DNA of 64,000 bases. Source: Candidatus Poribacteria bacterium (GTDB taxonomy: Bacteria > Poribacteria > WGA-4E > WGA-3G). The notes below the pieces were generated by a model. It saw only the letters and a list, made by a program, of their open reading frames with translations. It was not told the origin of the DNA and made no database searches. Below, one piece after another: positions 10,390 to 48,169 of this stretch. The stretch lies in NCBI GenBank assembly GCA_965214095.1, contig OZ243938.1:1568001-1632000 (forward strand). Reading direction: 5' to 3'. Positions within the stretch are counted from its first letter, which is position 1. The number at the start of each line of letters is the position of its first letter. The position numbers and the translations under genes are program-made.

Positions 10390-11948
<1,559 letters not shown>

Positions 11949-12134: not shown

Positions 12135-12370
12135 TCTCTATTACCATATCAACCAATCATTTTCATCTGATAAACAGCCAACCCAAACTCATTAGAGAAT
12201 AAATCCAAACACAGAATAAAGCGCAAAGTCTCTGTGTCCTCCAATTCTTTATTATTTACAAAACGATTTTCATGCTTTCTGTAACCTGATATACGTTTAT
12301 TTCGTAATTTTGCCACCTGAATTGGTTTCTTATGTTTCGGTCTATTAGAGCACGGAGGAGGGTTTAGCCT

Positions 12371-12991
12371 ATGGCGCGCCAAGCGAAGAACAAACTATCT
12401 GCTACCGAAGATACTTACTTAGCCACACAAGTCAAACAAGGGAATGAAGCAGCGTTTAGACAGTTGTTTGATAAACACTATGAGTGGGTCTATAGTAAGG
12501 CATATCGTATGCTAAAATACCACCATCAGGATGCAGAAGAGGTTAGTTTGGACGTATTTACTAAGGTCTGGGAAAAACTACAAGATAATAAATGGGACCC
12601 AAAGAAAGGAAGTTTTTGGGCTTGGCTAAATAAACTCGCGTTTAATACAATTGTTGATGCAATACGAAAAAGAGAACGGATTCGTGAATCGGTCCAAACC
12701 TATGAAGAACAGAATAACTTGCCGTTGAACCAGTACGAGGATGATGCCCCCGGGCCAGACAAACATATTATCGCTCAGGAAGCACAAGAAATATTAGAAA
12801 AGGCTCTTGAACAGGTCACAAGACCTAACCACCGTATTGCTTGGATATTACGACATTTAGAAGGATGTAGTGTCGCAGAGATTTCCCATATACTTAATAC
12901 AAAAGAAGGTACTGTGAAAATCTGGATTCACAGATGCACAATAGAACTCAGACAGATAATGGTCAACAATGGAATTACATGGATACAATAG
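12371..12991 (+). CDS. ECF-type sigma-70 RNA polymerase sigma factor
   Basis: Region 2 (GNEAAFRQLF...DAEEVSLDVF...SFWAWLNKLAFN) and region 4 (LEGCSVAEISHILNTKEGTVK); GGAGG RBS. Confidence 0.9.
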   Translation: MARQAKNKLSATEDTYLATQVKQGNEAAFRQLFDKHYEWVYSKAYRMLKYHHQDAEEVSLDVFTKVWEKLQDNKWDPKKGSFWAWLNKLAFNTIVDAIRKRERIRESVQTYEEQNNLPLNQYEDDAPGPDKHIIAQEAQEILEKALEQVTRPNHRIAWILRHLEGCSVAEISHILNTKEGTVKIWIHRCTIELRQIMVNNGITWIQ

Positions 12992-13019
12992 TACTCTGTC
13001 CATTTTTTGTATTGTCCGT

Positions 13020-13090
13020 TGGGGAGAGAAACGACACCCGACTTTCTTTATGATAAGGGGCTGCATGTTGGGTGTCGTCCCTCTACCCCA
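13020..13090. repeat. long imperfect inverted repeat (REP/REPIN-like hairpin)
   Basis: TGGGGAGAGAAACGACACCCGAC versus reverse complement TGGGGTAGAGGGACGACACCCAAC. Confidence 0.6.
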
Positions 13091-13118
13091 TTGAACAACG
13101 TTATTGAAGGAGATAATC

Positions 13119-15179
13119 GTGCCAGACAAAACCACTTCAAACCTAATACTTAGACCACTTAACGACACAGATGTTACAACTTGGGAACTCCCCGAAGGTG
13201 CAATTACCCGATTGGGACGGGGTAGACTGGTGAATATATCATTTTCACCTGATGGGAAGTATCTTGCTGTAGCAACTCCTATCGGATGTTGGTTGTATGA
13301 CCTACCCACGCTTACCCCTCGCTCATTGATTGAAACGGAACGCGGAATGCTTACGAAAATTGCTTTTTCTCGTGATGGACGGTGGATTGCTACGGGCAAC
13401 GCGGATGGTATCGTTAAGGTATGGGACACAGATACCTCACAGTGTCTTGCCAAAATAGATTACCACAAGATAATGGGAGGACCGTTGGGTTATTGTGATT
13501 TGAACTTTTCGGAGGATGGCAAATATCTTGCTGTGTCCAGCTCCAGTGGGTGTGCTGTCTTCACTTGGCACACAAATACTGATGAACCCATAGCACAGTT
13601 CTCGATTGATGCAGCAGATACGAATGGAAAACGCGTTCCTATCTACTTATCTCCTAACAGGAATATGTTTGCATACGTATCTTCTGTGTCTCCCATGACT
13701 ACAATAATGATTAAAGATATTGACACCGGTGAACATATTACAGACTATAGTTGTCCAGCACTTTATGCATTCACAGGTCTTGTATTTTCACCGTGTGGTC
13801 AGTATCTTGCATCTGTACATCAGAACGGCAATGTGCAGGTGCGTAATATTGACAATGCCACATCGGAGATAGTACATACCTTATCAGATGCGACTTCTGT
13901 GAGACTTGCGTATACGTCTGTTGGTGCATTGCGTATTGCTGAAATTCATGAGGAAAAAGTTGTAATTTGGGATACGGAGCAGTTTCAGAAGGTAGGTACA
14001 TTGGAATTTGAGAGACACGGAAGGAAAATATTTCGATTTTCGGACGATGGAACACATTTCGTAATCGCTAATTCACGCGAATTCCAAGTATGGAGGGATG
14101 GCGGATTGATTAAAGTTGTGTCTATGTCTGCTGCACATATAGGTATTATTAGATGGGTACGTTTTTCTCAACAGAAAAAGACACTAATTAGTGGACACGG
14201 ACCAAGTAATATGTTCTGGTCTTTAGAGGATCACCAGTTACAACATATCTTCTATCCCAAAACAGAGGGTTACTTTTTGGGAAGAAGTAGCGTCTTATCA
14301 CCTTGTGAAGAATCTCTTGCTACCCCTATTTTAGGTATCCGCAATAGCAACGACATCGCTATTACAATTTGGCATATTACATCTGGCACCTTAATTGCTG
14401 AGATGACTGGACATGAAAGACATGTCGTCCAGATGGCGTATTCACCGTCTGGAGACTTTTTAGTTAGTGCATCGTCACTTGGTGAGCTCATTGTATGGGA
14501 CACGCAGTTTTGGGAAAAGCGTCACGAACTTATAGGACATACTAAAGATATTACGAGTGTCTTTTTTCACCCTGATGGGAAGCAGCTTGTCACCGCGTCC
14601 AATGACAGGACTGCACGAGTCTGGAATGTTGAGAATGGTGAACAGGTCGGTTCACTTCCTTTAGACACAATCATAAAAGATATATCCCTTTATAGAGGTG
14701 GATCCCAAGAAATCCAGGCGTTAATAAAATGGAAACAGCAATTGGAGTCTGAGCAGTCAACTGATCAAACCATTTGTTCTGATATCCGGTTTTCTCCGTG
14801 CGGTACACTCATCGCCGGTAGGTTATATCGGCGCGGTAAATGGAAGAAGAAAATGGCAAATGAGATTAGACTTTGGGATGCAGCAACCTTAGAAATACGA
14901 ATGACGATACTGCTCCCTGCAGATGATTCCCTTACACGTGCGCTTACATTTTCACCATGCAGCCGCTACCTTGCCTCTGGAACGTGGTGGAAAAAAGGTT
15001 TAGAGAAGATGCGAATAAGGTTATGGGAGGTTGCGAGTGGGGAAAATATTGCTACCTTCTGGGGACATCCAACAGATATTCATGACCTGGCATTTTCACC
15101 TGATGGTTCGCTTCTCGCAAGTGGTAGTTATGATGGGACTATCCTCTTGTGGGACATGAAACCTTTTATTAACTCTTAG
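13119..15179 (+). CDS. WD40 repeat protein, array copy 1
   Basis: GTG start after AGGAG; DVTTWELPEGAITRLGRG, multiple FSxxG...WD blades, terminal GH...FSPDG..LASGSYDGTILLWDMKPF. Confidence 0.92.
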   Translation: MPDKTTSNLILRPLNDTDVTTWELPEGAITRLGRGRLVNISFSPDGKYLAVATPIGCWLYDLPTLTPRSLIETERGMLTKIAFSRDGRWIATGNADGIVKVWDTDTSQCLAKIDYHKIMGGPLGYCDLNFSEDGKYLAVSSSSGCAVFTWHTNTDEPIAQFSIDAADTNGKRVPIYLSPNRNMFAYVSSVSPMTTIMIKDIDTGEHITDYSCPALYAFTGLVFSPCGQYLASVHQNGNVQVRNIDNATSEIVHTLSDATSVRLAYTSVGALRIAEIHEEKVVIWDTEQFQKVGTLEFERHGRKIFRFSDDGTHFVIANSREFQVWRDGGLIKVVSMSAAHIGIIRWVRFSQQKKTLISGHGPSNMFWSLEDHQLQHIFYPKTEGYFLGRSSVLSPCEESLATPILGIRNSNDIAITIWHITSGTLIAEMTGHERHVVQMAYSPSGDFLVSASSLGELIVWDTQFWEKRHELIGHTKDITSVFFHPDGKQLVTASNDRTARVWNVENGEQVGSLPLDTIIKDISLYRGGSQEIQALIKWKQQLESEQSTDQTICSDIRFSPCGTLIAGRLYRRGKWKKKMANEIRLWDAATLEIRMTILLPADDSLTRALTFSPCSRYLASGTWWKKGLEKMRIRLWEVASGENIATFWGHPTDIHDLAFSPDGSLLASGSYDGTILLWDMKPFINS

Positions 15180-15314
15180 ACATTCCTTATCAATTCATTT
15201 ATAGCATTGCGATACCTGTTGCATTACACAACTCTGTCAGTCAATTTTACATAATATATCAGAGCATGAAGTTACCGAGTCTTGCATCTCATATACCAAT
15301 AAAGGAGATAATTT

Positions 15315-17285
15315 TTGAAAAACAGAGAACCCATAACACCTTCAATTAGACCTATCCACGACACGGATGTAACAACATGGGAACTCCCCGAAGGGGCAAT
15401 TGCCCGGTTGGGGCGGGGTGGAATTATGGGTAATATCATTCACGCACCTGATGGAAAGCACTTTGTTGTTCCAAGTTCCATAGGAGTCTGGTGGTACAAT
15501 ATATCTACAATGACACCTAATGCACTAATGGACACAGACAGAGGATACATTACTGCTATCTCATTTTCTCCAAATGGTAAAAGGCTTGCAACAGGTGATG
15601 GAGACGGTCTGGTCAAAGTATGGGATGTACAGAATGGTGTCAACATCGCGCAGATGGATCGGGATGAAAATGAGAAACCCTACCATTGTGTTTCCCGATT
15701 CGCATTTTCATCTGATAGTCAGTTTATTGCAGCTTCCAGTTTCCGTGATTATATCCTATACATCTGGAACACTGAAACGGGCAAACAAATTGGCAAATTC
15801 CACGATAATACCAATTATAGGTGGTGGCCTACTCTGCTACGTCCTATTGCCTTCTCTCCGGATGGCAGTTTGATAGCGTGTACAATGCCTGATGAGGGTC
15901 TATTCGCACATGCAGATCGTCGTGGAACGATCCGTACTCCCAATCATTCTTCCAACTATATTTCTGTATGGAATATAAAAACAAGTGAACAAATAGCATG
16001 TATTACAGAACATCCTGATTTTGTTAATAGTATTGTCTTTTCTCCTTGTGGAAAGTTTCTTATCTCTGGAGGAAGAGATGGAACAGTGAGGGTGTGGTCA
16101 GTTGAAACTTGGAAGATGCTCCATTCATTTAATAATCTTGGAACAGAACGGAAACAACTCTTCTATTCACCTAAAAGTGAATTGTTTGCTAAAGAAGCCT
16201 CTAAGGATAATTTCACTGTATGGAATGTATATGAAGGTCAAAAAACCGACACATACCTTGAAGAACATCGAAATATTCAAATCCCATATTCCACAAAGGA
16301 AGCACCATTTATTGTAGCCGATGAGAACGAATTTAGAGTGTGGAAAGTCGGTGATACTCAACCACATACTTTTGTTCATTCACACATAGAATTCTCTGAT
16401 TCAGTAGTATTCACAGAGGATGGAAAAACACTCGCAGGGGCAATTCGAGAAAATGGTATTATGTTGTGGGATATGACTAAACCATCATTTCCGCTAACAC
16501 ATTTGAATATATCTGGTAACAAGAAAATTGTTTCTTCGTTTGGTTCAGAAAAGATTTCTGTTATGGGTATAGAGGGGAACGCAGCTAAAGTATGGGTGTC
16601 TGGAGAGAGTCAACCAAGACATATATTCACACTTCCTAACGGAAAAGAAGAAGCGACATCAGCAGCATTCGCACAGGTAGAGAACCTGTTAGTTTGCAGT
16701 GGAACACAAAATAAACTCTACATATGGAACACTCAAACGAAAGAAATATTACATACACTCACACCAGATTTATCGGATGAAGATTCCATAGCATATTTGG
16801 AATTTAGTCCAGATGCAAAACTACTTTTCAGTGTCTCGGGACGGGGTCCCAGAACCTATCTATGGCAAGTTGAAACAGGAGAGATAATTGATACTTTCAC
16901 CTATAATACCAGAGTCATTACTTTTTCCCCATGTAGTTCAATAATAGCTTGTGCAGTACCCCCAGGAATTATATTATGGGATGTAAATCGTTCTGAAACC
17001 GTCATCGCAATGCCTGAGAAGGAAGAAGATTTTCTTGTAGCATTGTCATTTTCTCCATGCGGAAGATATTTAGTTTCCGGTTCAAATTGGCAGCAACGTA
17101 TGAATATAAAGAAAGTGGCTATTCGGTTATGGGAGGTTGCAAGTGGCAAAAACATTGCCACTTTTAGAGGACACCCAACTGATATTCAGTCATTGGCTTT
17201 CTCCCCAGATGGTAAACTGTTAGCCAGCGCAAGTTTTGATGGTACCATCCTCCTCTGGGATATGAAACCCTTTATTAACTCTTAG
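15315..17285 (+). CDS. WD40 repeat protein, array copy 2
   Basis: Same conserved termini; AAGGAG RBS, TTG start. Confidence 0.92.
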   Translation: MKNREPITPSIRPIHDTDVTTWELPEGAIARLGRGGIMGNIIHAPDGKHFVVPSSIGVWWYNISTMTPNALMDTDRGYITAISFSPNGKRLATGDGDGLVKVWDVQNGVNIAQMDRDENEKPYHCVSRFAFSSDSQFIAASSFRDYILYIWNTETGKQIGKFHDNTNYRWWPTLLRPIAFSPDGSLIACTMPDEGLFAHADRRGTIRTPNHSSNYISVWNIKTSEQIACITEHPDFVNSIVFSPCGKFLISGGRDGTVRVWSVETWKMLHSFNNLGTERKQLFYSPKSELFAKEASKDNFTVWNVYEGQKTDTYLEEHRNIQIPYSTKEAPFIVADENEFRVWKVGDTQPHTFVHSHIEFSDSVVFTEDGKTLAGAIRENGIMLWDMTKPSFPLTHLNISGNKKIVSSFGSEKISVMGIEGNAAKVWVSGESQPRHIFTLPNGKEEATSAAFAQVENLLVCSGTQNKLYIWNTQTKEILHTLTPDLSDEDSIAYLEFSPDAKLLFSVSGRGPRTYLWQVETGEIIDTFTYNTRVITFSPCSSIIACAVPPGIILWDVNRSETVIAMPEKEEDFLVALSFSPCGRYLVSGSNWQQRMNIKKVAIRLWEVASGKNIATFRGHPTDIQSLAFSPDGKLLASASFDGTILLWDMKPFINS

Positions 17286-17423
17286 ACATTCCTTATCAAT
17301 TCATTTATAGCATAGCATAACAATACCGGTTGGATTACACAACTCTATCAGTCAATTTCACATTACATATCGTAGTGCGAAGTTACCGAACCTCGCAAGC
17401 CATAAAACAATAAAGGAGAATTG

Positions 17424-19418
17424 ATGGAAACCACAAAAACACAAACAACCACCCCTTTTCACTTTGATGATAGCAAAGTATGTAATTGGACACTTCCCGA
17501 AGGTGCAATCGCTCGATTAGGACGTGGAAGTGTACGTGATATGGAATTTTCACCGGATGGACAGTACTTCGCTGTTGGAACAACAATAGGACTTTGGATG
17601 TATCAACTTTCAACACTTTCCCCAATCACGCTCTGGGAAACTGATAGAGGATATATTGAAAGTGTTACATTCTCACCTGATGGTCGATGGATTGCTTCAA
17701 CTACACTTAACGAAGCACTCAGGGTGTGGGATATCCAGAACAAGAGTTGTATTACTGAGATGGAATTTAAGGAGAAACATACCAATTTCGGAATTGACAA
17801 ACCTGTTTTTTCCGCAGATGGAGACTGTCTTGTTGCATTTAATGTGAACAACAAGGTTTATTTTTTGTGTCCTCGCACCGGTACGAAAATGAGAGAAACA
17901 GAAATCAAAGTAAATGGAACAGAAAACGAAACAATTGATGGGATCTATCCCACTTGTTTTTCTCCGGATATCAGTTTGTTGGCAGGTGCGTGTTGCGATC
18001 ATAGAAACCGTACCGTTGAATTCATTGCACTGTGGGATGTGGAGACAGGTGAACAAGTCACTCGTCTTGAATGGACTGAAAGATGGGGTAACCTCTGTTT
18101 TTCACCGTGTGGAAGGTTTCTTGCTGCCGGCAGTTCAGAGGGTAAAATTCATGTGTGGGATGTGGAAAGTGGAAGTCTGATTGCAAGCTATTCTGACTAT
18201 GGAGATGCACGGATGACACCACATTATCCCTCGGAAGGTGGATTGATTGCAACTATGGTTTTTCCATCTGAACCCAAAATTGAAGTCTGGGATTTAGAAA
18301 GAAACGAAAAAATGGCGACGTTCGAAAAAGGGAGCAAACATAGTTTTGTCCGTTTTTCGAAAGATGACACAAAATTTGCATATACTGATGATGGGGAAAT
18401 CAAATTCTGGACAAAAGAAAAACCCATCTCGAAATTACTGCCGAGTATTAAAGGACATACACGTCCAGTCAGTTCATTAGTCTATGCAACAGATGAGAAA
18501 ACGCTTGTGGCTACGTACTGGGGGTGGAAAGCACTTTTTTGGGATGTTCCACGCAGACGAGGACAACGTCCAACTGGAACAGATTTACCCACAAGTAAAA
18601 CACTTCATCTCTATCAGGACAATGAGGGGAAAGTATATGCAACGGGTGGAGACAGTGCCTACCTAAGAGTGTGGAAGAATGGCAATAGTGAATCAATCAC
18701 CGATATTCCAATACATGAGCAAAAACTGCAATCAATCACAGGTAGTGAGGCGTTCGCATTAACAGCAGACCGGATAGCGCGGGCAGATAGAGATCATAAC
18801 ATCTATGTATGGATGTGTAAATCGAAATCAAATAGTAGTGATAATAAAAAGGACTGGATATTGCAAGTAAATCTGACCGGACATACAGAATACATTGAAG
18901 CTTTGGCATTTAGTCCTGACGCAAAACAACTCGTGAGTATATCGCGAGATAAAACTGCCAGATTATGGGATGTTGAATCAGGAGAACAGATCATACAACT
19001 ACCTTTAACCCCGCCTTCAAGTCCCAGACGATACCGAAGTTATGACAGAGGTATTACATTTTCACCTCGTGGAGACTTAATTGCAGGTGGACAGTGGGGA
19101 GAGATAGTGCTGTGGAATGCGACAGATGGAAAAATCTATAGGACAATTCCACAACCAGAAGGAAATCAGCGACCGATTACATTATGTTTTTCACCATGTG
19201 GGGAGTATCTCCTTTCCGGTTCATGGTGGCAAGGTGGTTTGCAGAAAGTGCCTATCCGTTTGTGGAAAGTAGCGACAGGTGAGAATATTGCCACGTTTTC
19301 TGGACACACTACAGACGTTCAGTGTTTTGCATTTAATCAGGATTGCACTGTTCTCGCCAGCGGTGGATATGATGGGGTAATATTCCTCTGGGATTTGAAA
19401 CCGTATATCAATTCATAA
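17424..19418 (+). CDS. WD40 repeat protein, array copy 3
   Basis: WTLPEGAIARLGRG...GHTTDVQCFAF; close paralogue of copy 4. Confidence 0.92.
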   Translation: METTKTQTTTPFHFDDSKVCNWTLPEGAIARLGRGSVRDMEFSPDGQYFAVGTTIGLWMYQLSTLSPITLWETDRGYIESVTFSPDGRWIASTTLNEALRVWDIQNKSCITEMEFKEKHTNFGIDKPVFSADGDCLVAFNVNNKVYFLCPRTGTKMRETEIKVNGTENETIDGIYPTCFSPDISLLAGACCDHRNRTVEFIALWDVETGEQVTRLEWTERWGNLCFSPCGRFLAAGSSEGKIHVWDVESGSLIASYSDYGDARMTPHYPSEGGLIATMVFPSEPKIEVWDLERNEKMATFEKGSKHSFVRFSKDDTKFAYTDDGEIKFWTKEKPISKLLPSIKGHTRPVSSLVYATDEKTLVATYWGWKALFWDVPRRRGQRPTGTDLPTSKTLHLYQDNEGKVYATGGDSAYLRVWKNGNSESITDIPIHEQKLQSITGSEAFALTADRIARADRDHNIYVWMCKSKSNSSDNKKDWILQVNLTGHTEYIEALAFSPDAKQLVSISRDKTARLWDVESGEQIIQLPLTPPSSPRRYRSYDRGITFSPRGDLIAGGQWGEIVLWNATDGKIYRTIPQPEGNQRPITLCFSPCGEYLLSGSWWQGGLQKVPIRLWKVATGENIATFSGHTTDVQCFAFNQDCTVLASGGYDGVIFLWDLKPYINS

Positions 19419-19512
19419 CATTCCTCGTCAATTCTCTTGGTCAAATTCGCAATTCATCTCAACGTGCAAGATTAACGAATCTCGCCATTTATTAGAGTAA
19501 GGAGACATCATT

Positions 19513-21522
19513 ATGAAAAATGAAACCACATCAACCCCAGTACTTAGACCACATGATGACACAGATGTAACAACATGGGAACTGCCCGAAGGGGCAATTG
19601 CTCGATTGGGACGGGGTGGTCTGAGGGATATGGCATTTTCACCAGATGGACATCATTTTGCAGTCGGAACGAACATAGGACTCTGGATATACGAACTTTC
19701 CACGCTGTCCCCGATCGCGCTGTGGGAAACGGATAGGGGATATATTGATAGTGTTACATTTTCACCAGATGCTCAATGGCTTGCCGCATATACATATCAG
19801 CAAGCACTCAGAGTATGGGACATCCAAAATCAAGTGTGTGTTGCAGAGATGGAGTTGCCGAAAGGACGAAAAGGGCAGATTCGTTTGTCTAATATGAAAC
19901 CGATCTTTTCTCAAGATGGAGAAGAACTCTTCGCTTTCAATTATTTCATCGGGAGGGTTTATATCTGGTGTCCACGAACTGGCGCGTTAAAAAATGAAAT
20001 AGAGATAAAATTAAGTGATACTGACATCAAATCCATAAATGCCATCTATCCAAGCTACTTTTCTCCAGATTTGAGTTTGTTGGCAGGCACTTGTTACGAT
20101 CATAGTGACCGTACCGCTGAATTCATTGCAGTGTGGCAGGTAGAAACGGGAGAACAAATCGCTCGTCTTGATTGGACTGAAAGGTGGGGTCGTCATTGCT
20201 TTTCGCCGTGTGGACGATTTTTTGCTACCACTGGCTCAGAAGGAAGATTACATGTGTGGAACGTGGAGACTGGAAACCTTGAGGAAACCTATACCGATCA
20301 CGAGGATACTCAAATACATCCATATTATACACCGGAAGGTGAATTAATAGCCGCGGTAGTCTTTCCATCTCAGCCTAAACTTGAAGTCTGGAATTTAAAA
20401 AAAGGTGAAAAAATTGACACATGTGAACATCAGAGTCAGGGAAGTTCTGTTCGTTTTTCGACGAGTGGTACACAATTCGCCTACACTGATAGAGGTGAAA
20501 TCAAAATCTGGATAGAAGGTAGCCCCATCGCTCAAGCATGCCCGACTATTCAGGGGCACACTGGGACTGTCGGTTCATTAGTCTTCGCACCGGATAAAAA
20601 AACGTTAGTGACTGCCTACTGGGGTAGGAACACGGTTTTATGGGATGTTTCAAGTCAGTGTGCCCGATATCCAACCGAAAAAGAACTACCCAATAGTATA
20701 CGTGATGTTTACCCGACTTCAATCGGGACAATCTTTGCTGTTGGCGGAGACGAAAAAACATTAGAAGTATGTGAGTTTGGAAGCGGTGAATCCATCGCTG
20801 AAATTCCTATTCCTGAATCCGGGTTGTTATTGGGAACGGGGACCGATGCGTCAGCACTGACAGCTCAACGGTTGGCACGTGCTGGTAAAGATCGCAACAT
20901 CTATGTGTGGGAGTACACACCTTCATCTAATGAAATAAACGAAGGAGGAAACTGGGAAAAGTGTGCCGTCCTTATAGGACACGCAGAATATGTTAATGCG
21001 TTGGCATTGAGTCCCGATGGAAAGCGGCTCGCAAGTATCCCTATAGTGCGTCGTCCACAAAAACGAACCGCTCTATTATGGGATGTTGATGCTGAAGAAC
21101 AGATTACTCAGTTACCCCTAACTACACCGGAACGGGGAGGATATAACAGTTACCAGACGGGGATAACGTTTTCACCAGATGGTAACATAATCGCTGGTGG
21201 ATTTTGGAACGAGATTGTTTTGTGGGATGCAACAGATGGAAAAACGCTTATGACGATTCCTCAATCGGAAGAGAATCAGCGACCAATTACACTTCGTTTC
21301 ACGCCGTGCGGCCAATATTTGGTTGCGGGTGCTTGGTGGAAAGGTGGACTAAAAAAGACATCCATCTGTTTATGGGAAGTCGCAACAGGTAAGAGGATCA
21401 CCACGTTTAAGGGACATACCACTGATGTACAGTGCTTTGCATTTTCGCAGGACTGTACCGTTCTTGCAAGTGGTGGACATGATGGTGCGATTTACCTTTG
21501 GGATCTGAAACCTTATCTGTAG
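19513..21522 (+). CDS. WD40 repeat protein, array copy 4
   Basis: Same conserved termini; paralogue of copy 3. Confidence 0.92.
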   Translation: MKNETTSTPVLRPHDDTDVTTWELPEGAIARLGRGGLRDMAFSPDGHHFAVGTNIGLWIYELSTLSPIALWETDRGYIDSVTFSPDAQWLAAYTYQQALRVWDIQNQVCVAEMELPKGRKGQIRLSNMKPIFSQDGEELFAFNYFIGRVYIWCPRTGALKNEIEIKLSDTDIKSINAIYPSYFSPDLSLLAGTCYDHSDRTAEFIAVWQVETGEQIARLDWTERWGRHCFSPCGRFFATTGSEGRLHVWNVETGNLEETYTDHEDTQIHPYYTPEGELIAAVVFPSQPKLEVWNLKKGEKIDTCEHQSQGSSVRFSTSGTQFAYTDRGEIKIWIEGSPIAQACPTIQGHTGTVGSLVFAPDKKTLVTAYWGRNTVLWDVSSQCARYPTEKELPNSIRDVYPTSIGTIFAVGGDEKTLEVCEFGSGESIAEIPIPESGLLLGTGTDASALTAQRLARAGKDRNIYVWEYTPSSNEINEGGNWEKCAVLIGHAEYVNALALSPDGKRLASIPIVRRPQKRTALLWDVDAEEQITQLPLTTPERGGYNSYQTGITFSPDGNIIAGGFWNEIVLWDATDGKTLMTIPQSEENQRPITLRFTPCGQYLVAGAWWKGGLKKTSICLWEVATGKRITTFKGHTTDVQCFAFSQDCTVLASGGHDGAIYLWDLKPYL

Positions 21523-21540
21523 AATACAAGGAGATGTTTT

Positions 21541-23550: not shown

Positions 23551-23645
23551 ATATGCCTTGTCATTTCTCTTGGTCAATTTCTTGAACAACTTAATTTGTA
23601 ACATTAACGACTCTCGCCATTTATAAGTGTAAAGGAGACATCATT

Positions 23646-25838: not shown

Positions 25839-25970
25839 AGCCATTCATGTCAATTCACCGATAGTATATCGGCTGCTGCTGGCATAGTGAACTCACCCAA
25901 CCAACTTCGTAATAAGCATGCTAGACACTTAAACCTCAAACACTTTTTGGCAACAACAGGAGGCACTTTT

Positions 25971-28007
25971 ATGGAAAACAGACAACCTTTAACTCCCGTA
26001 CTGCGACCACTTAACGACACTGATGTAACAACTTGGGAACTCTCCGAAGGTGCAATTGCCCGATTCGGACACGGATTGAGACTTGACGTAGAATTCTCAC
26101 CCGATGCCGCATATCTTTCCGTAGCAACAAAAATTGGATTCTGGCTATATGATACGGATACCCTTGCACCTCGCGCATTGTGGGGTACCGAACGCGGCAT
26201 GATGAATGTCGCCACCTTCTCGCATGATTCACGTTGGATTGCCACTGGTGACCAAGACGGGATTCTCAAGGTGTGGGATACACAAAACGGACAGTGCGTT
26301 GCAAAAACTGACTGGGGAGGTACTGAGGAACGCAATGTCATCCTTCATGCCCACTTTTCACTGGACGATCAATATCTCGCTGCTTCCGGTTTTGGACATA
26401 GTGCTGTCTATACCTGGAATAGAGAACTCAACGCACCTATCAGGAATTTTAAACTTGAAAAGCCAAAATTAGCGGATTATAGAAAAGAAGGTACTTCTTA
26501 TGACAGATATTTTCCCATCGCTTTTTCACCCAACAGTAATCTATTCGCTTATGTGTCTTCACCGGAAGCAGTAACGGTTTCAGATATAAACACAAGTGAA
26601 GAGATAGCACACCTCACGGGACACACTACCCCATTACATACCCTCCTGTTTTCACCCTGTGGACAACACCTTGCGAGTGCAAGTCGTGGCACTGCAGTTC
26701 AAGTATGGGATATTCATAATGAATCTCTTGTTATGGCACCCAAAACATATCAAGGTGAAAGAGTAAGACTTGCGTACACACCAGATGAGACATTACGTGT
26801 TGCAGACATTTATAATGACAAAGTGGTAATGTGGGATGCTTCACAGCACAAAAAGTTGGATACCTTCAACACTATTGGGAATACAGACAGTAAGGCAAGG
26901 TTTTCAAACGATGGAACAAAATTCGCAATTACATGCAGGAACCGCAAAATCCAAATATGGCATGAAGATGATTCTACTACAAAATCGTTCTTTTCTGGAT
27001 ATGGAAGTATTCCTTATTCGGTGGCATTTATGCAGGATAACAAAACATTGATCGGTGGGAACTGGGGAGGTACTGGTAAGTTATTTTGGGATATAAATAG
27101 ACGGGAAGTCCAGCGGATACTGCCACCAGAGAAACGCAGTTCTTCCAGAGGATGCATGACGTTGTCTCCAGATGATCAACTCTTGGCTATTGATACAGGA
27201 GACAATGATATACACGTCTGGCATGTTGAAACTGATGAATTAGTTGCAGAACTAACAGGACATGAAAATCGGATTTATTCGTTGACGTTTTCTCCTACCG
27301 GTAAATACCTTGTCAGTGGAGGATGGAAAGACGAATTATACGTTTGGGATGTCGCGCGCTGGGAAAAACATCACACACTTATAGGACATACAAGTTCAAT
27401 TGAGGCAATTGCATTCCATCCTGATGGAAAACGGTTCGTTACCTCCTCCAGGGATGGAACAGCCTTGCTATGGAATGTTGAAACCGGAGAACAAATCTCA
27501 CCACTTCCTTTACCTGAAACCTTAGAGGATGTCTCTCTATACAGGGGTGAACCAGACGAAATTGAACGAGTTATCAATGGTGGGAATCTTCAATATAAGA
27601 AATATCAACACATGCAATCTATTGTTTTTTCGCCTTGTGGCAACTGGATTGCTGGTGGACTCGGCACATGGATCGCTGATGCGTTAATAAATGAAATCCG
27701 ATTGTGGGACACAGAAACGTTAGAAACACGCATGATATTCCTTCAACCTCATGGATGTATTCGTCCGTGGGCATTAGCATTTTCTCCGTGTGGAAAGTAT
27801 CTCGCATCAGGTGCTTGGTGGAAATGGGGATTAGACAAAGCACCTATCCACTTGTGGGAAATGACGACTGGCGAAAATATCCATACTTTCTGGGGACACG
27901 CATCGGATGTTCAAGATGTAGCCTTTTCACCAGATGGAAAATATTTGGCAAGTGGCAGTTATGATGGCACTGTCCTATTGTGGGCTATGGAACCATTTCT
28001 TGATTAG
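25971..28007 (+). CDS. WD40 repeat protein, array copy 7
   Basis: AGGAGG RBS before ATG 25971; canonical GH...WD blades. Confidence 0.92.
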   Translation: MENRQPLTPVLRPLNDTDVTTWELSEGAIARFGHGLRLDVEFSPDAAYLSVATKIGFWLYDTDTLAPRALWGTERGMMNVATFSHDSRWIATGDQDGILKVWDTQNGQCVAKTDWGGTEERNVILHAHFSLDDQYLAASGFGHSAVYTWNRELNAPIRNFKLEKPKLADYRKEGTSYDRYFPIAFSPNSNLFAYVSSPEAVTVSDINTSEEIAHLTGHTTPLHTLLFSPCGQHLASASRGTAVQVWDIHNESLVMAPKTYQGERVRLAYTPDETLRVADIYNDKVVMWDASQHKKLDTFNTIGNTDSKARFSNDGTKFAITCRNRKIQIWHEDDSTTKSFFSGYGSIPYSVAFMQDNKTLIGGNWGGTGKLFWDINRREVQRILPPEKRSSSRGCMTLSPDDQLLAIDTGDNDIHVWHVETDELVAELTGHENRIYSLTFSPTGKYLVSGGWKDELYVWDVARWEKHHTLIGHTSSIEAIAFHPDGKRFVTSSRDGTALLWNVETGEQISPLPLPETLEDVSLYRGEPDEIERVINGGNLQYKKYQHMQSIVFSPCGNWIAGGLGTWIADALINEIRLWDTETLETRMIFLQPHGCIRPWALAFSPCGKYLASGAWWKWGLDKAPIHLWEMTTGENIHTFWGHASDVQDVAFSPDGKYLASGSYDGTVLLWAMEPFLD

Positions 28008-28083
28008 CATATATATGCATCAGATTGAACTAAAGTATTCTTTAGTGTCCAAACAAGCTGTAGCAATTGCTGAGGAGATTATT

Positions 28084-30075: not shown

Positions 30076-30395
30076 CGACTTGTGCTAAAAAACTAAATGT
30101 TAAGTATTGATTCACACATTCAGGTCCTTTTGTCCGTATTTCTTTCACTTAAGATGCTCTTTAGTCCCGTATGAAGATAAAAAACAAATAGGGTAATTTG
30201 ACTTCAAAGTCCAGCGCGCTTACAAAGCGCGCCTACGGGTTTGACAAGCGCGCAAGCAAAGCACGCCTACAGGTCTTGGGTTAATTAAGATTAACCGTTT
30301 AATAAATTAATCTTCATTAGGGACGATATGCTTATAGTGTTAATGCTATTAAATGTAAAAACCAACAAGACAGAATGTTAACTGGCACAAGTCGT
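30075..30395. mobile_element. MITE (IS982-like AC ends) with a nested second MITE and REP hairpins
   Basis: Perfect 11-bp TIR ACGACTTGTGC / GCACAAGTCGT; 6-bp duplication AAATTA at 30069-30074 and 30396-30401. Inner IR GTCCCGTATGAAGAT / ATCTTCATTAGGGAC spans 30164-30324. Confidence 0.8.
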
Positions 30396-30478
30396 AAATT
30401 AGCATATATGTGCATCAGATTGAACTAAAATATTCTTTAGTGTCCAAACAAGCCGTAGCAATTGCTGAGGAGATTATT

Positions 30479-32560: not shown

Positions 32561-32614
32561 TTTATGTGCGTCATGTTGATCTAAACAACTGTAGCAATCG
32601 CTGAGGAGATTATT

Positions 32615-34600: not shown

Positions 34601-34699
34601 ATATTTCTCGTAAATTCTCTTGGTCAATTTCATATAATACCTTGACGCACGAGGTTATTGAATACTGAACGTCTATTAGTAATAAAAGGAGACATCTTC

Positions 34700-36763: not shown

Positions 36764-36795
36764 AACAACTGATAAAAAATAACTTGGAGGTTTCC

Positions 36796-39000: not shown

Positions 39001-39057
39001 TTTATATGTGCGTCATGTTGATACAAACAAGCAGTAGCAATTGTTGAGGAGATTATT

Positions 39058-41244: not shown

Positions 41245-41301
41245 TTTATATGTGTGTCATGTTGAGCTAAACAAACTGCAGCAATTGCTGAGGAGATTAT
41301 T

Positions 41302-43386: not shown

Positions 43387-43459
43387 GGCACTTCCAATAA
43401 GAATGTGCCAATTGCTTGAAACTGAGATGAATTTCCGCTAAACTTTAGCAGGGAGGATT

Positions 43460-44737
43460 ATGATCATGTCAAACATTTCAGATGAACAATTGGTAGTCGC
43501 CGCGGCAAAAGGTGATACCAATGCAATGGAAAACATAAAAGAAAGAGCAATATTTGGAAAATACGGCATACGCAAATGTCTTAAGAAGATGGGATGTACT
43601 GATAAAGAAATATCTCTGCTGGAACCCAAAATAGTCCAGATTTTGTTGGCTTCCATACCCAAATATGAATTCACTGCTCCGTTTTTTGTATACGGATACC
43701 GTCTTGCGGTAAATTATTCTCTCCAATATAAGGAAAACAGGGAAGTTCTACTGTTTGACAAACGGATACATAAGGAAAAAGCATGCCCAAATACACTGCG
43801 GACATTGAGCGACACTCTTGGAAAACCTAAGCATCCGCCGCTTGAACAAATTGACCTTGAGATTCGGACACTTGTGAGTTTACTGAATCAATCACCTGAC
43901 ATTAAAACATCCGGTTCCTCTTGTAGTGGACATCCAGATCAGGAAGAATGGAAAAACGGGAAATGGTCTCAATTTGGAGGATATATTGGGATCATACCAA
44001 TGAGTTCCCCGGACAAGGCATTGGATTTTCTCAACGGTATACTGAAGAAGTTAGATAATTCTAACACACAGACCAAGAATAGATTTTTACCAGCAGACCT
44101 ACAGCAAACAAAGAGTACACTGAATGAAAACATCACTTTCACTGACGCAATTCGCGCACGATACAAGCAAGTAGACGCTGAGGATTTGTTCTGCTCAGAT
44201 GCCCCCGTTGTCTTGATAAACGTTTCATTCCGTTTTTATGTGTGCCATAGCCATGCAAAGCATTCTTTAGAAATCTGGAAACAACTCATCGCGCGTATAA
44301 AAGAGTTGATCCCAGAAGACAGGGAGCTTACTGCTGAAGTTGACACGCCAGAGAAGGCAATGCAGCTATTGCAAAAAGCATTACACCGGTTACCCTTCCT
44401 ATTTAGTGCCACACTTACGACAAGTCAGGAAGGATATCCCGGAATAGTCTTGACTACTGTAGCAGACCTCGCTTTATTACAGTGGTTTTCAACATTAGCC
44501 GATAGGCTGCATGAATGTCTTGATAATGCAGGATATGTAAGTTCTCGCTATACAGAAGATGAAATACCATATGCTGAAAAGTGGTCTTTCACGTTGAGAC
44601 CATTTCTAAACCAAGAATGCATACCGTTACCGCATCTGTTAGCACCGCAGTGGGAACCACGCACTCGTGAAGACCATCTGAAGATTTGGAAACTCCTTGA
44701 GTTAACAGTGGCAGAACAAGTTGAATGTGAAATTTAG
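43460..44737 (+). CDS. hypothetical protein: sigma-70 region 2-like N-terminus fused to a TYW3-like domain
   Basis: SDEQLVVAAAKGDTNAME...FFVYGYRLAVNYSLQY (ECF sigma2-like), then IDLEIRTLVSLLNQSPDIKTSGSSCSGH; no region 4 HTH seen. Confidence 0.6.
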   Translation: MIMSNISDEQLVVAAAKGDTNAMENIKERAIFGKYGIRKCLKKMGCTDKEISLLEPKIVQILLASIPKYEFTAPFFVYGYRLAVNYSLQYKENREVLLFDKRIHKEKACPNTLRTLSDTLGKPKHPPLEQIDLEIRTLVSLLNQSPDIKTSGSSCSGHPDQEEWKNGKWSQFGGYIGIIPMSSPDKALDFLNGILKKLDNSNTQTKNRFLPADLQQTKSTLNENITFTDAIRARYKQVDAEDLFCSDAPVVLINVSFRFYVCHSHAKHSLEIWKQLIARIKELIPEDRELTAEVDTPEKAMQLLQKALHRLPFLFSATLTTSQEGYPGIVLTTVADLALLQWFSTLADRLHECLDNAGYVSSRYTEDEIPYAEKWSFTLRPFLNQECIPLPHLLAPQWEPRTREDHLKIWKLLELTVAEQVECEI

Positions 44738-44861
44738 AGCATTTACCAGTAATCTATATTAAAATGTAATAAGTAAACACCTCGCTATAGAAAATGAAGA
44801 CTAAAAACATTTTGGGGTGATCCACTCAACAATCGTCAAATTGACATTTAGGAGGATTTTT

Positions 44862-46139
44862 ATGTTGTCAAACATTTCAGAGCAAAGATTGATAGTTGCA
44901 GCGGTGAAAGAAGGTGATTCCAATGCATTGGAAGAACTAAAAGAACGTCTAATTTCTGGACAATACGGTATACGCCCTATAATTAATAGAATTCCATGTG
45001 CAGATGCCGACAGAAAAATACTTGAACAACATATTGTGGAGAATATCATCAATGATTTGCATGCACATGGGTTCAGAGGGTCTATCCAGACATCTGGATT
45101 CCGTCTCGCTACCCATTTTGCTATCCAATATAGGAATAATAACGACTTTAGACTTTCTGACCTAGACAGTCCGAAAGAGAAAGTAGTGCTGACTGCAAAC
45201 AATGATCCTGAAGAACCTAAGCACCCTCCACTGGAGGAAATTGACCTTGAGATTCGGACACTTGTGAGTTTACTGAATCAATCACCTGATATTAAAACAT
45301 CCGGTTCTTGTAGTGGACATCCACAATGGCAACCCGATAAATGGACTCAGTATGGAGGCTATCTTGGGATCAGACCTATCAGTTCTCCGCGTAAAACTTT
45401 AGATTTTCTTGTTGGTATGCTGATGCAGTTAGATAATACAGGCACGCCAACCAATAATGCATACTTGCCAGCTGCGCTGCAAGTAGAGGATAGCACACGG
45501 AATGATAACACCATTTCTGTCGAAGCAATTCGTGAGCGATATAAGCAAGCTGACGCGGAGAATTTATACTGTTCCGGTGCGCCTATTGTCCTTATAGGTG
45601 TTTATTTTCGTTTCTATGTTTGTCATCGTGAAGAAAGCCACTCTTTAGAAATCTGGAAACAACTCATCGCACGTATAAAAGAGTTGATCCCAGAAGACGG
45701 AGAGCTTACTGCCGAAGTTGACACGCCAGAGATGGCAATGCAGCTATTACAAAAAGCATTACACCGGTTACCCTTCCTATTTAGTGCCACACTTACGACA
45801 AGTCAGGAAGGATATCCCGGTATTATCTTGCACACAGTAGCAGACCTTTCATTATTCCAATGGTTTTGTGCATTAACCGACAAACTACATGAGCAGCTTG
45901 GCAAAGCAGGATATGTAAGTTCTCGCGATACAGAAGATGAAATACCATATGCTGAAAAGTGGTCTTTCACGTTGAGACCATTTCTAAATCAAGAATGCAT
46001 ACCGTTACCGCATCTGTTAGCGCCGCAGTGGGAACCACGCACTCGTGAAGACCATCTGAAGATTTGGAAACTCCTTGAGTTGGCAGTTGCAGAACAACTT
46101 AAGTCTGAGGGTATTACATTAAAAACTGAAAATACGTAG
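44862..46139 (+). CDS. paralogue of 43460-44737 (degenerate sigma2-like plus TYW3-like)
   Basis: AGGAGG RBS; SEQRLIVAAVKEGDSNALE...; identical IDLEIRTLVSLLNQSPDIKTSG block; near-identical C-terminal third. Confidence 0.6.
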   Translation: MLSNISEQRLIVAAVKEGDSNALEELKERLISGQYGIRPIINRIPCADADRKILEQHIVENIINDLHAHGFRGSIQTSGFRLATHFAIQYRNNNDFRLSDLDSPKEKVVLTANNDPEEPKHPPLEEIDLEIRTLVSLLNQSPDIKTSGSCSGHPQWQPDKWTQYGGYLGIRPISSPRKTLDFLVGMLMQLDNTGTPTNNAYLPAALQVEDSTRNDNTISVEAIRERYKQADAENLYCSGAPIVLIGVYFRFYVCHREESHSLEIWKQLIARIKELIPEDGELTAEVDTPEMAMQLLQKALHRLPFLFSATLTTSQEGYPGIILHTVADLSLFQWFCALTDKLHEQLGKAGYVSSRDTEDEIPYAEKWSFTLRPFLNQECIPLPHLLAPQWEPRTREDHLKIWKLLELAVAEQLKSEGITLKTENT

Positions 46140-46285
46140 TGTATCTCATAAATCATTATAGGACGAGGTTTTGTGCTTCATCCTATCCTGGGAAAAAGAC
46201 AATGGACGGGCACAGAGACTCGCCTCTACGATTTAAGGTAATGTGGTATTATTTCATTTCAAACTGTTTTTATGGTGTGTTTAAT

Positions 46286-48169
46286 ATGCAAAACAAAGAT
46301 TTCACACAGAACTATCCTGAAGAAAACCTTATCTCTTTACCATCCGAGGCGATCGCTCGATTCGGTAGGGGTGATGTAGAAGGTACTGCCATCTCCCCCG
46401 ATGGAAATATGATTGCAGTAGCATCCCGTATTGGTTTGTGGATTTATAATGCTCATACTGAAGATTTCATAAGGCTAATTGCGGTAGAAGGCACAGGTCT
46501 ACTTTCAAGGGTTACTTTTTCTCCAGATAGCACACAGGTTGCTACAGGCGATTGGGATGGCATTGCATCACTATGGGATGTTTCTACTGGAGCAAAACTC
46601 GCAACCTTCAAGAATAAAGATTATGTCATTTCCATTGCTTTTTCTCCAGATGGAAAATCCTTGGCAACTGGAACACGGGATGGTAAAGCAACACTGTGGG
46701 ATATTAACACTGGTAATGAACGTTGGTCGATTTCTCACAAAGATTATGTCACTTCCGTTGCTTTTTCTCCAGACGGTTTACTTTTAGCAACAGGTAGTCG
46801 GGATAGTACATCAAATCTATGTGATGTTGAGAATGGAGAAGTTCAACGGTGTTTCACCCATCAGAAACATAGTGTAGATATTGAATTAGATACCGGGTTC
46901 GTTGAGACCTTTAACAATCTCGGAATCAATTGCATTGCCTTTTCTCCAAATGGACGATATTTTGCCACAGGTGACCGTATCGGAGCTGATATAAAGGGTG
47001 TTACAACATTGTGGGATATTGAAAGCGGGGAGGCTGTGTGGGAATTTGCCCATGAGGACTCTGCGACATCAATTGCTTTTTCAACAGACAATAAATACAT
47101 GGCAACTCGCTTTTCCAATGGAGACACCGATGTTCGTCATATTGCCGATTGCACAACGGCATCAATTCAAGAAGGAAATTGGGCAAAACAGAAAAAGAAA
47201 CCGCCAGCAAGTCATCCACGAGGATTATACGGCTGGCTCGTTAACTTTTCACCAGACGGAAAGCACTTGGCTGCCGTAACACAAATGTCTTCCCTTAAGA
47301 TATGGGATTTAGCATCTGGGATAAACATCAAGACAATTGACCAAGATATTGGACAAGCAGAAGCACTATCTTATGCACACGATGGATATTGCTTTGGAGT
47401 GAGCCGATCATCCAAAGGTGAGACCTCTTGGAATTGTGCGACCTTTTGGAAAGATCAGGAACAAAATATTGACTTTCGGCCTGAAGATCCAAATGCAGAC
47501 ATTTTATCCGCCGCTGTTTCACCTGATACCGAAATTGTGGCTACAGGAGGAGATGATAAAAAAGTTTATTTATGGGATAGAGCAACACAAAAATTGGTTA
47601 ACACACTTTCTGGACATACTGGACCAATAATTAACCTTGCATTCTCCCCTAATGGCACACACTTAGTAAGCACAGGAGGCATTGAAGTGGAAAGACAAGA
47701 AAAAGATGGAACCGTGTATTCTTACCCACTGGAGGATGGTGCGGCAGATCAGACAGCAAGAGTTTGGCATATTGAAACAGGTACTGAGGTCGCAACGCTC
47801 ACGCATCGCTTCAAAGTTGAGACGCTTGTTTTCTCACCAGATAGTACTTGCCTTGCAACTGCCTCTGGGGAAGATGTCCATCTGTGGGATACTAAGACGT
47901 GGCTGAAAATTGTAACACTTGAGACAGTAAGAGTTGAGTCGCTCGGATTTTCGGCGGATGGTTCGCTACTTGCCGTTGGTGGTACAGGACGGAAGCCAAA
48001 GATACAGATATGGAATGTGAAAACAGCACAACTGATTGTAGAATTCTCTGGTCACAAGAGTGATGTGGAATCTGTTGCCTTCTCACCAGATGGCACACTA
48101 TTGGCAAGCGGAGGTTTTGATAGTGTCATCTACTTATGGGATATGAAATCTATTACAGAATTAGATTGA
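46286..48169 (+). CDS. WD40 repeat protein, divergent copy 15
   Basis: LPSEAIARFGRG N-terminus, regular AFSPDG..LATG..D...LWD blades, terminal WDMK. Confidence 0.9.
   Translation: MQNKDFTQNYPEENLISLPSEAIARFGRGDVEGTAISPDGNMIAVASRIGLWIYNAHTEDFIRLIAVEGTGLLSRVTFSPDSTQVATGDWDGIASLWDVSTGAKLATFKNKDYVISIAFSPDGKSLATGTRDGKATLWDINTGNERWSISHKDYVTSVAFSPDGLLLATGSRDSTSNLCDVENGEVQRCFTHQKHSVDIELDTGFVETFNNLGINCIAFSPNGRYFATGDRIGADIKGVTTLWDIESGEAVWEFAHEDSATSIAFSTDNKYMATRFSNGDTDVRHIADCTTASIQEGNWAKQKKKPPASHPRGLYGWLVNFSPDGKHLAAVTQMSSLKIWDLASGINIKTIDQDIGQAEALSYAHDGYCFGVSRSSKGETSWNCATFWKDQEQNIDFRPEDPNADILSAAVSPDTEIVATGGDDKKVYLWDRATQKLVNTLSGHTGPIINLAFSPNGTHLVSTGGIEVERQEKDGTVYSYPLEDGAADQTARVWHIETGTEVATLTHRFKVETLVFSPDSTCLATASGEDVHLWDTKTWLKIVTLETVRVESLGFSADGSLLAVGGTGRKPKIQIWNVKTAQLIVEFSGHKSDVESVAFSPDGTLLASGGFDSVIYLWDMKSITELD

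Follow-up and report, generated by a model that had tools for sequence, protein, structure and literature searches.

What might link one sigma factor to a long row of beta-propeller proteins encoded directly behind it? The question is raised by a stretch of 64,000 nucleotides from a Candidatus Poribacteria bacterium (contig OZ243938.1, positions 1,568,001 to 1,632,000), here called the window, to whose numbering positions refer. Between 12371 and 48169, 18 intact open reading frames (ORFs) run in the same orientation: a gene for an extracytoplasmic function (ECF) sigma factor, fourteen WD40 genes (a01-a14, 13104-43386), the genes g15 and g16, and a further WD40 gene, g17. The locus is best explained as a lineage-specific signalling cluster of one Poribacteria family. 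We tentatively read it as a split, multiplied and many-to-one form of ECF sigma-WD40 regulators, in which free WD40 sensors would act on a single autoregulated sigma, and we consider this possible rather than probable. Support comes from the synteny of sigma and array, from fusions of the same WD40 subfamily to sigma domains, from the loss of an FHA partner gene, from a conserved promoter and from the pattern of surface conservation.

Much of the layout had been described in an original prediction made from the DNA letters alone. Its 18 co-oriented genes over ~36 kb are borne out, as are fourteen consecutive WD40 proteins of ~660-735 aa, which measure 656-734 aa once their starts are refined by Shine-Dalgarno sites. 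The spacing, given there as mostly 18-150 bp, is 18-146 bp, with the sole exception of a 403-bp gap between a08 and a09 (30076-30478) that stands apart. Also as predicted, no transmembrane (TM)-like segment was found in the 18 proteins by crude hydropathy (19-residue Kyte-Doolittle window, threshold 1.8); the N-termini are hydrophilic, no dedicated signal-peptide predictor having been used. Each array gene has its own Shine-Dalgarno sequence about 19 codons ahead of a common motif, D-x-D-V-T-T-W-x-L-P-E-G-A-I-A-R-L-G-R-G. The array proteins match Pfam WD40 at E 1e-33 to 1e-58 and share 31-83% pairwise identity, whereas g17 is just 25-28% identical to the remaining WD40 proteins.

The sigma factor at the head of the array is a full ECF sigma, as had been proposed, and consists of sigma2 and sigma4 domains only (206 aa; Sigma70_r2 E 1.3e-12 and Sigma70_r4_2 E 1.6e-7 in Pfam; TIGR02937 in NCBIfam, 94.4 bits where the cut-off is 42.9). 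It ends after sigma4 and the WD40 proteins are separate ORFs, so that the polypeptide itself contains no WD40 domain. Overall, 38 of 40 genomes have a match to this sigma, and two forms of it exist in the genus: a core copy, ~80% identical to the sigma of the window and present in nearly all genomes, and an array-type copy, which seven other genomes have at 84-97% identity. Directly behind the core copy lies a gene for a 213-aa FHA-domain protein in 22 of 22 loci; the array-type copy is without such a gene in 8 of 8 (flanks of up to 1.5 kb), and the source genome, G000, has one FHA gene only. The next gene after the array sigma is a WD40 gene, and no cognate anti-sigma gene adjoins it, consistent with the original prediction. 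The array-type sigma is a duplicate of the core sigma that lost the FHA partner gene of the core copy. The FHA protein is a candidate cytoplasmic anti-sigma, which could link the sigma to Ser/Thr phosphorylation. The core paralogue of the source genome lies outside the window, at G000:C1:1260550-1261947, and has the same ECF-type promoter.

That promoter-like motif, TGTAAC-N17-CGTAA, combines an AAC-type -35 with a CGT-type -10 element and occurs once in the window. Its generalised form, TG[TA]AAC-N16-17-CGT, precedes the start codon by 81-98 nt at 24 of the 26 sigma loci of the genus, with spacers that differ, and fits an autoregulated ECF promoter as predicted from sequence. Genome-wide, the ECF-like motif is not enriched (11 found versus about 14 expected); it is sensibly placed at the two sigma genes only, and its use for defining a regulon was dropped. 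Scans for sigma-70 promoters and terminators returned the counts expected from shuffled sequence and are uninformative on operon structure.

Is the association of sigma and array conserved? The array-type sigma is followed by a WD40 array in 6 of 6 testable other genomes of the genus, with at least 2, 4, 4, 7, 11 and 11 copies (G016, whose contig is too short, was left out), so that the synteny and copy-number variation for which the original prediction had suggested a search are both found. Among congeners, up to 17 WD40 ORFs occur in one run. In G032, the array-type sigma and the WD40 gene nearest to it are separated by a DDE_5 transposase gene (L075:7931-9301) on the same strand. The larger order sigma-WD40(n)-sigma2/TYW3, named in the original prediction as the synteny to look for, holds in its two halves: the sigma precedes the array as described, and the g15 family has WD40 neighbours at 16 of 18 loci across two genera (11 of 12 in one set and 5 of 6 in another). 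The modules are nevertheless separable. Sigma and array occur without g15 in G021, in G036 and at the G035 array; array and g15 occur without an adjacent sigma in G015 and G030; and a g15-type fusion with WD40 alone is found in G024, G031, G019 and G026.

Such a distribution might also arise without any functional coupling, if an expanded WD40 family had undergone tandem duplication beside a duplicated sigma and the shared layout merely reflected common inheritance. All genomes with an array-type sigma belong to one genus and are therefore not independent, the very large WD40 family forms clusters at many sites, and the modules do occur separately. The layout, however, persists despite turnover of its content (4 to 14 copies, a partly shuffled order and an insertion sequence (IS) element), every gene in the window is intact, sigma-WD40 fusions have arisen independently in several clades, and the adjacency of g15 and WD40 genes spans two genera, all of which makes a mere accident of duplication improbable.

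Nor is the array an assembly artefact. Contigs that tile 12105-30486, taken from two public DNA-like runs, show 0 mismatches and an even depth of about 28-35 for one run and about 107-170 for the second, so that a collapse of strains, raised in the original prediction as what might undo it, does not account for the array. No listed contig piece covers 28131-28307, and the run contigs break only at conserved gene ends. These runs may be the source samples; they confirm the sequence and not the gene order, which is supported instead by the long host contig (5,206,209 bases) and by equivalent arrays in other genomes, several of them on single contigs. Two RNA libraries contained only contigs of a ~92-96% identical relative, filling 16 and 17 of 30 bins, from which uncovered genes are not readable as silent and a single transcript cannot be shown.

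The link between sigma and propeller extends beyond the window. In the source genome, 142 of 5,877 ORFs of at least 100 aa match the array profile at E < 1e-20, and a search with the sigma finds 51 ORFs at E of 1e-3 or below. These 51 include 4 sigma-WD40 fusions that lack a TM-like segment, 8 sigma-TM-WD40 fusions and 18 further long sigma-TM proteins without a WD40 match. One long sigma-TM protein has Sigma70_r2, Sigma70_r4_2 and Sortilin/BNR propeller hits in Pfam. The direct fusion L082 (Sigma70_r2 plus WD40) has the W-x-LPEGA motif of the array immediately after its sigma part, and in the tree, free WD40 proteins are interspersed with fused ones. Elsewhere in the genome, members of the WD40 subfamily of the array are thus covalently fused to ECF sigma domains. 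A tandem run of ~57 kb (G000:C1:3228977-3285826) comprises about 15 genes for ~1000-aa proteins made up of an ECF sigma, one TM helix and a propeller; the WD40 profile matches two of these, and Pfam, applied to one, gives Sortilin/BNR hits.

A connection between sigma factors and WD40 domains is not new in itself, given these 12 fusions and those of the ECF57 type in the literature. ECF57 is the group formerly called ECF01-Gob. ECF57 factors have WD40-like extensions at the C-terminus, regulation by protein interaction has been proposed for them, and two conserved cysteines link their sigma2 and sigma4 (PMC8999054). They number 5.3 copies per planctomycetal genome (PMC7826278), and planctomycete ECF sigmas with WD40 domains have been described (PMC8567305). 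The original prediction, which knew of no described system with this layout, overlooked ECF sigma factors with WD40 extensions (PMC8999054, PMC8567305). ECF57 factors resemble the cluster in tying an ECF sigma domain to WD40 propellers within a single pathway and in being present several times per genome, and the 12 fusions of the source genome have propellers of the same family as the array. Compared by domain layout, they differ in that the cluster has a bare 206-aa sigma and 14 separate tandem propeller genes, a one-to-many arrangement in trans. Our literature search returned no description of a free sigma with a tandem WD40 array or of a sigma2-TYW3 fusion; supplementary tables of ECF groups lay outside this search and may hold such neighbourhoods.

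Conceivably, the WD40 proteins are the output of the sigma rather than its input: a read-through operon of scaffold or 'eukaryote-like repeat' proteins serving cell biology or host interaction, with control of the sigma lying elsewhere, as it would if the FHA protein acted on it in trans. The co-orientation, short gaps and lack of terminator enrichment would suit an operon headed by the single ECF-type promoter, and old paralogue subfamilies under purifying selection would suit its products, as would a family as large as the 142 profile matches; WD40 abundance in Poribacteria has been known since 2014 and is discussed in terms of eukaryote-like repeat proteins, in a paper whose main text does not contain the word 'sigma' (PMC3909097). 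RNA-library contigs of the relative, here ~95% identical, that cover the sigma and a03-a04 point weakly the same way, DNA carry-over being possible. Left unexplained by an output role are the repeated sigma-WD40 fusions of the same subfamily and the recurrent pairing of a sigma2-only protein with WD40 genes. Export of the WD40 proteins is moreover unsupported, because no signal peptide-like or TM segment was found in them and because the TIGR04183 sorting domain gave no match at E up to 1 in the two WD40 proteins tested; the Por-secretion sorting domain suggested for poribacterial WD40 proteins (PMC3909097) was rejected on the latter result. An output role is the main rival to the split regulator, and we hold it to be somewhat unlikely.

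Propeller structure, variation and selection

What kind of protein does the array encode? The AlphaFold2 model of a04 (pLDDT 83.0, pTM 0.85; 47-sequence alignment) comprises 56 strands, that is, 14 four-stranded blades, and Foldseek places 2ymu_A first (E 1.9e-37), along with Aip1 (1nr0), Pwp2/Utp proteins, Apaf-1 and Gemin5. This model, and its matches to 14-blade proteins, agree with the double beta-propeller that protein size had suggested. Judging by the D-A-B-C strand order, the N-terminal strand should complete the last blade.

The original prediction spoke of near-invariant terminal blades and highly divergent cores. Conserved termini and a variable core are indeed seen, but 'near-invariant' is too strong: among the 14 paralogues, the majority-residue frequency is 0.73 in repeat 1 and 0.63 in repeat 2, falls to 0.39-0.56 in repeats 3-11, and rises again through 0.58 and 0.65 in repeats 12 and 13 to 0.82 in repeat 14. 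Within blades, the top-face loops D-A (0.38) and B-C (0.41) score lowest, compared with 0.69 for the A-B loop and 0.53-0.62 for the strands, which is the usual pattern of WD40 families. These top loops are conserved in the terminal blades (0.62) and variable in the core (0.29). Variability thus peaks in the central-blade loops of the top face, in line with the surface clustering that had been anticipated.

Saturation of synonymous sites is seen in termini and core alike (median proportion of synonymous differences, pS, 0.66-0.74), which identifies purifying selection as the reason for terminal conservation. Gene conversion as its cause is ruled out by the same saturation, with the exception of the a09/a11 C-terminus (pS 0.06). 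The ratio of non-synonymous to synonymous substitution (dN/dS) stays below 1 in every class examined in six pairs; in the four closest pairs it is 0.40-0.66 for central-blade top loops, 0.23-0.36 for central strands and 0.13-0.22 for terminal-blade top loops. In a midpoint-rooted FastTree phylogeny of 93 WD40 proteins from the source and related genomes, about nine subfamilies are common to several species and recent duplications are few (a09/a11/a14, a12/a13 and a05/a10). The repertoire is old and maintained with some birth and death, not hypervariable, and dN/dS and the shared subfamilies do not indicate fast evolution of the diversified repertoire initially proposed.

These observations bear on whether the cluster might be an immune or conflict system, in which WD40 receptors sense phage or host proteins and trigger a sigma-dependent defence, comparable to NLR/STAND proteins. 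Array copies vary from 4 to 14 among congeners, with the run of 17 ORFs mentioned above, and dN/dS is highest precisely in the top loops of the central blades. ECF sigma domains occur in some conflict systems (PMC8195603), and reportedly regulate a CBASS/CRISPR island (PMC11506125). Propellers with variable top-face loops, and hence possible binding diversity, are a feature that the array shares with fungal HET-type/STAND NLRs; it differs from them in having neither a NACHT/NB-ARC nor an effector domain, no internal repeat hypervariability, and dN/dS below 1. In particular, the Pfam matches listed for the 18 proteins (the best 25 families per WD40 protein) include neither a NACHT/NB-ARC domain nor any effector domain such as an NTPase, caspase, TIR or nuclease. 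In PADLOC, 0 families match the sigma, g15 or g16, and the three WD40 proteins tested match only a single long model (PDLC02919), weakly and in part, through its repeats. Orthologous subfamilies are conserved across species, and the flanks consist of housekeeping and sugar-metabolism genes plus a 16S rRNA gene. Nothing in these searches points to the phage sensing envisaged by the original prediction, and we consider a defence role very improbable.

Do the propellers share a constant docking face, as was also proposed? This was examined (DISCRIMINATING) by extending the array alignment with fused relatives and further free ones and recording identity to the array consensus for each repeat. Repeats 1 and 14 are elevated in all forms, including the sigma-TM-WD40 proteins (45-63% and 37-62%, versus mostly 13-32% in the core). 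Their conservation must be at least partly structural, because it is common to relatives whose propeller is predicted to be extracytoplasmic. Repeats 2, 12 and 13, however, are elevated solely in free-standing WD40 proteins at comparable core divergence: in free_916202 the values are 55, 54 and 60, as against 50, 9 and 31 in the direct fusion 891161, at similar core divergence. This pattern fits a surface, formed by repeats 2, 12 and 13, that would be needed only when the propeller acts in trans. The idea of a docking face may thus hold for these three repeats.

The sigma2/TYW3-like fusion proteins

Downstream of the array, g15 and g16 encode proteins of 423-425 aa. The AlphaFold2 model of g15 (pLDDT 85.7, pTM 0.86; 61-sequence alignment) has two parts. 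Residues 2-95 align to ECF sigma region 2, with SigK (4nqw) as the best match (Z 11.8, root-mean-square deviation 1.7 A, 84 residues; VIA-align), and the 33 best rows, with Z from 11.8 to 6.5, are sigma chains or complexes containing them, over residues 1-97. Pfam Sigma70_r2 gives no match for g15 or g16 even at E up to 10, so the sigma2-like reading of the original prediction holds at the level of the structural model despite the silence of Pfam. The g15 family profile also matches, through positions 1-95 to 1-140, many proteins of ~180-205 aa at E around 1e-6 to 1e-8, which may be ECF sigmas.

The second part had been assigned to TYW3. Weak signals converge on this assignment: g15 and g16 reach 17.1 and 19.2 bits for TYW3 in Pfam, below the 27-bit cut-off; residues 113-425 match the TYW3 structures 2qg3, 1tlj and 2drv at Z 6.2, 5.7 and 5.6 in VIA-align, where Z under 8 may mean merely a common arrangement; TYW3 is the nearest Atlas cluster (score 0.87); and PF02676 is precomputed for 45 of 109 listed g15 homologues. 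Foldseek of the g15 model against the PDB returned nothing at E 0.001 or better, the domains being resolved by VIA-align only. TYW3/Taw3 enzymes, which are methyltransferases dependent on S-adenosylmethionine (SAM), have the signature (S/T)xSSCxGR, an invariant N-terminal Asp and a later His that bind SAM, and, in SsTaw3, Asp25 and Cys48 (PMC5311493). The g15 family has S151-G-S-S-C155-S-G-H158, with C155, G157 and H158 invariant, and D132, present in at least 90% of its sequences, precedes the Cys by 23 residues. It thus resembles TYW3/Taw3 in the S-G-S-S-C-S-G stretch, in a near-invariant Asp at the same 23-residue spacing and in weak fold matches to three structures, and differs in its large insertions, sigma2 fusion, bacterial origin and sub-cut-off Pfam scores. 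Position 158 is His in 61 of 61 aligned sequences where TYW3 requires Arg, for which reason we call the domain TYW3-like and not TYW3. No equivalent of the SAM-binding His could be placed, the alignment being broken by insertions.

A protein with only a sigma region-2-like domain would have a precedent in SigO-RsoA, the two-subunit sigma factor of Bacillus subtilis. Unlike that system, g15 and g16 carry a TYW3-like domain of ~310 aa, no sigma4-only partner is evident, and the cluster includes a full sigma. Among distant metagenomic relatives of the g15 C-terminal part (P0111-P0113, P0110 and P0132), Clp_N repeats, a hydrophobic N-terminus or an FGE-sulfatase domain take the place of sigma2, so that the module SCSGHP...RTREDHLxIW combines with varied N-terminal domains. 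A related-locus search found no loci related to the Clp_N/TYW3-like P0111, and a phylum-wide search with P0113 recovered only the sigma2-type family and ClpA/B-like N-domains.

The g15 family is narrowly distributed. It was found in 17 of 36 congeners and in a second genus of the same family, but in none of 24 genomes of three other families of the order, and all homologues bearing a source name are from Candidatus Poribacteria. The WD40 gene that follows it often belongs to the g17 clade: in the tree, g17 groups with the WD40 proteins that neighbour g15 homologues in G032, G005 and G019, and the sister clade comes from G031, G019 and G026. Both the sigma2/TYW3-like fusion architecture and the WD40-g15-WD40 unit are undescribed in the literature searched.

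A possible many-to-one pathway

How might so many propellers act on one sigma factor? In the split regulator that we tentatively favour, the free cytoplasmic WD40 proteins would be sensor or regulatory partners of the sigma. We envision that each of them binds a ligand or protein of its own through the variable top face of the central blades, and that all contact the sigma2 domain or a common partner through a shared sector, formed by repeats 2, 12 and 13 next to the N/C-terminal closure, so that many inputs would converge on one transcription switch, by analogy with the RsbR paralogues that feed one stressosome. The sigma2/TYW3-like proteins might then serve as sigma-domain decoys or modifiers at the same WD40 interface.

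Several points weigh against this scheme. Direct evidence of WD40-sigma binding is nil, and we know of no tested precedent for fourteen trans-acting regulators of one sigma. Sigma, array and fusion modules are separable, and G015 and G030 keep arrays in genomes that lack the array-type sigma entirely; in G032, the IS transposase separates sigma and array. Since the two sigmas are ~80% identical, the FHA protein may still control the array sigma in trans, and with a single ECF-like promoter in the window, control of the array would need a 36-kb transcript or unknown promoters. The propeller of the sigma-TM-WD40 relatives has a predicted extracytoplasmic location, so that the family would sense there without touching the sigma, and these forms share the conservation of repeats 1 and 14. 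A complex prediction for the sigma with a04 scored 0.00 ('no answer'), was run without controls and carries no weight either way.

A bolder version would make the cluster a new kind of cytoplasmic receptor bank, in which every free 14-bladed WD40 protein has a different host, phage or metabolic ligand on a variable face, one conserved sector docks sigma2 of the ECF sigma, and the sigma2/TYW3-like proteins act as SAM-dependent modifiers or decoys that tune the docking; the whole would be a functional counterpart of the stressosome, built on WD40 proteins, in an uncultivated animal symbiont. In Bacillus, RsbR paralogues feed one stressosome that controls sigma-B, and there, too, paralogous sensors with variable sensing parts and conserved docking parts serve one alternative sigma. 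The cluster nevertheless has no STAS domains and no partner-switching kinase or phosphatase genes, and its proteins have another fold; the likeness is an analogy only, and we regard the receptor bank as distinctly unlikely.

If the favoured split pathway exists, its layout offers a separable sigma, propellers and a sigma2-only fusion, which are open to pairwise tests of WD40-sigma binding. ECF sigmas with WD40 extensions are abundant in Planctomycetes and Poribacteria, and the literature examined here contains no tested mechanism for them. With the sigma2/TYW3-like/WD40 unit, a methyltransferase-like fold that has been little studied gains a new domain architecture. A corollary for sponge symbiosis is that at least part of the 'eukaryote-like' WD40 expansion may represent bacterial transcription signalling and not secreted host effectors.

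Coordinates and neighbouring features

Features of the cluster in the window, and the order of genes following the array-type sigma in related genomes
Feature	Positions	Strand	Evidence or remark
ECF-type promoter-like motif TGTAAC-N17-CGTAA	12280..12307	+	64 bp upstream of sigma start codon
ECF sigma, 206 aa, array-type duplicate of core sigma	12371..12991	+	sigma2 + sigma4 domains, TIGR02937
a01, WD40 double propeller, 686 aa	13119..15179 (alternative TTG start 13104)	+	Pfam WD40
a02, WD40 double propeller, 656 aa	15315..17285	+	Pfam WD40
a03, WD40 double propeller, 664 aa	17424..19418	+	Pfam WD40; covered by RNA-library contigs of ~95%-identical relative
a04, WD40 double propeller, 669 aa, modelled copy	19513..21522	+	Pfam WD40, AlphaFold2 model, Foldseek
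a05, WD40 double propeller, 669 aa	21541..23550	+	Pfam WD40
a06, WD40 double propeller, 730 aa	23646..25838	+	Pfam WD40
a07, WD40 double propeller, 678 aa from ATG at 25971	25971..28007	+	Pfam WD40
a08, WD40 double propeller, 663 aa	28084..30075	+	Pfam WD40
a09, WD40 double propeller, 693 aa	30479..32560	+	Pfam WD40; 79-83% identity to a11 and a14
a10, WD40 double propeller, 661 aa	32615..34600	+	Pfam WD40
a11, WD40 double propeller, 687 aa	34700..36763	+	Pfam WD40
a12, WD40 double propeller, 734 aa	36796..39000	+	Pfam WD40
a13, WD40 double propeller, 728 aa	39058..41244	+	Pfam WD40
a14, WD40 double propeller, 694 aa	41302..43386	+	Pfam WD40
g15, sigma-region-2-like domain (~2-95) fused to TYW3-like domain (~113-425)	43466..44737	+	AlphaFold2 model, VIA-align, Pfam below cut-off
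g16, paralogue of g15, 65% identity	44862..46139	+	Sequence comparison
g17, WD40 double propeller, separate clade accompanying g15 family	46286..48169	+	Pfam, tree
G032			IS transposase, 11 WD40 genes, two g15 homologues, one more WD40 gene
G036			11 WD40 genes
G035			7 WD40 genes
G021			4 WD40 genes
G005			4 WD40 genes, then g15 homologue
G025			At least 2 WD40 genes, then contig end

The array sigma is directly preceded by a 16S rRNA gene (10390-11940) and a tRNA-Ile-GAT gene (12061-12134), with a perfect TTGACA-17-TATAAT promoter ahead of the former (10239-10267). The rRNA genes appear to be unlinked, because the 64-kb window has no further rRNA family match, and the same 16S-sigma layout is suggested in G032, G021 and G035, where ORF-free gaps of similar size precede the array-type sigma. 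Within the array, the 403-bp spacer holds GC-rich repeated units of the GCGCGC...CTAC type, its summed depth is about three-fold above that of its neighbours in the DNA runs, and it is also high in the RNA runs; the spacer might be a small repeat of dispersed type or encode a small RNA. Near the left edge of the window, and cut by its start, 51-2567 encodes a Type ISP restriction-modification enzyme (Type_ISP_C, E 1.6e-89; N6_Mtase). Beyond the cluster, the protein encoded by 52813-54096 (427 aa) matches DUF5069 in three stretches (E 2.2e-81).

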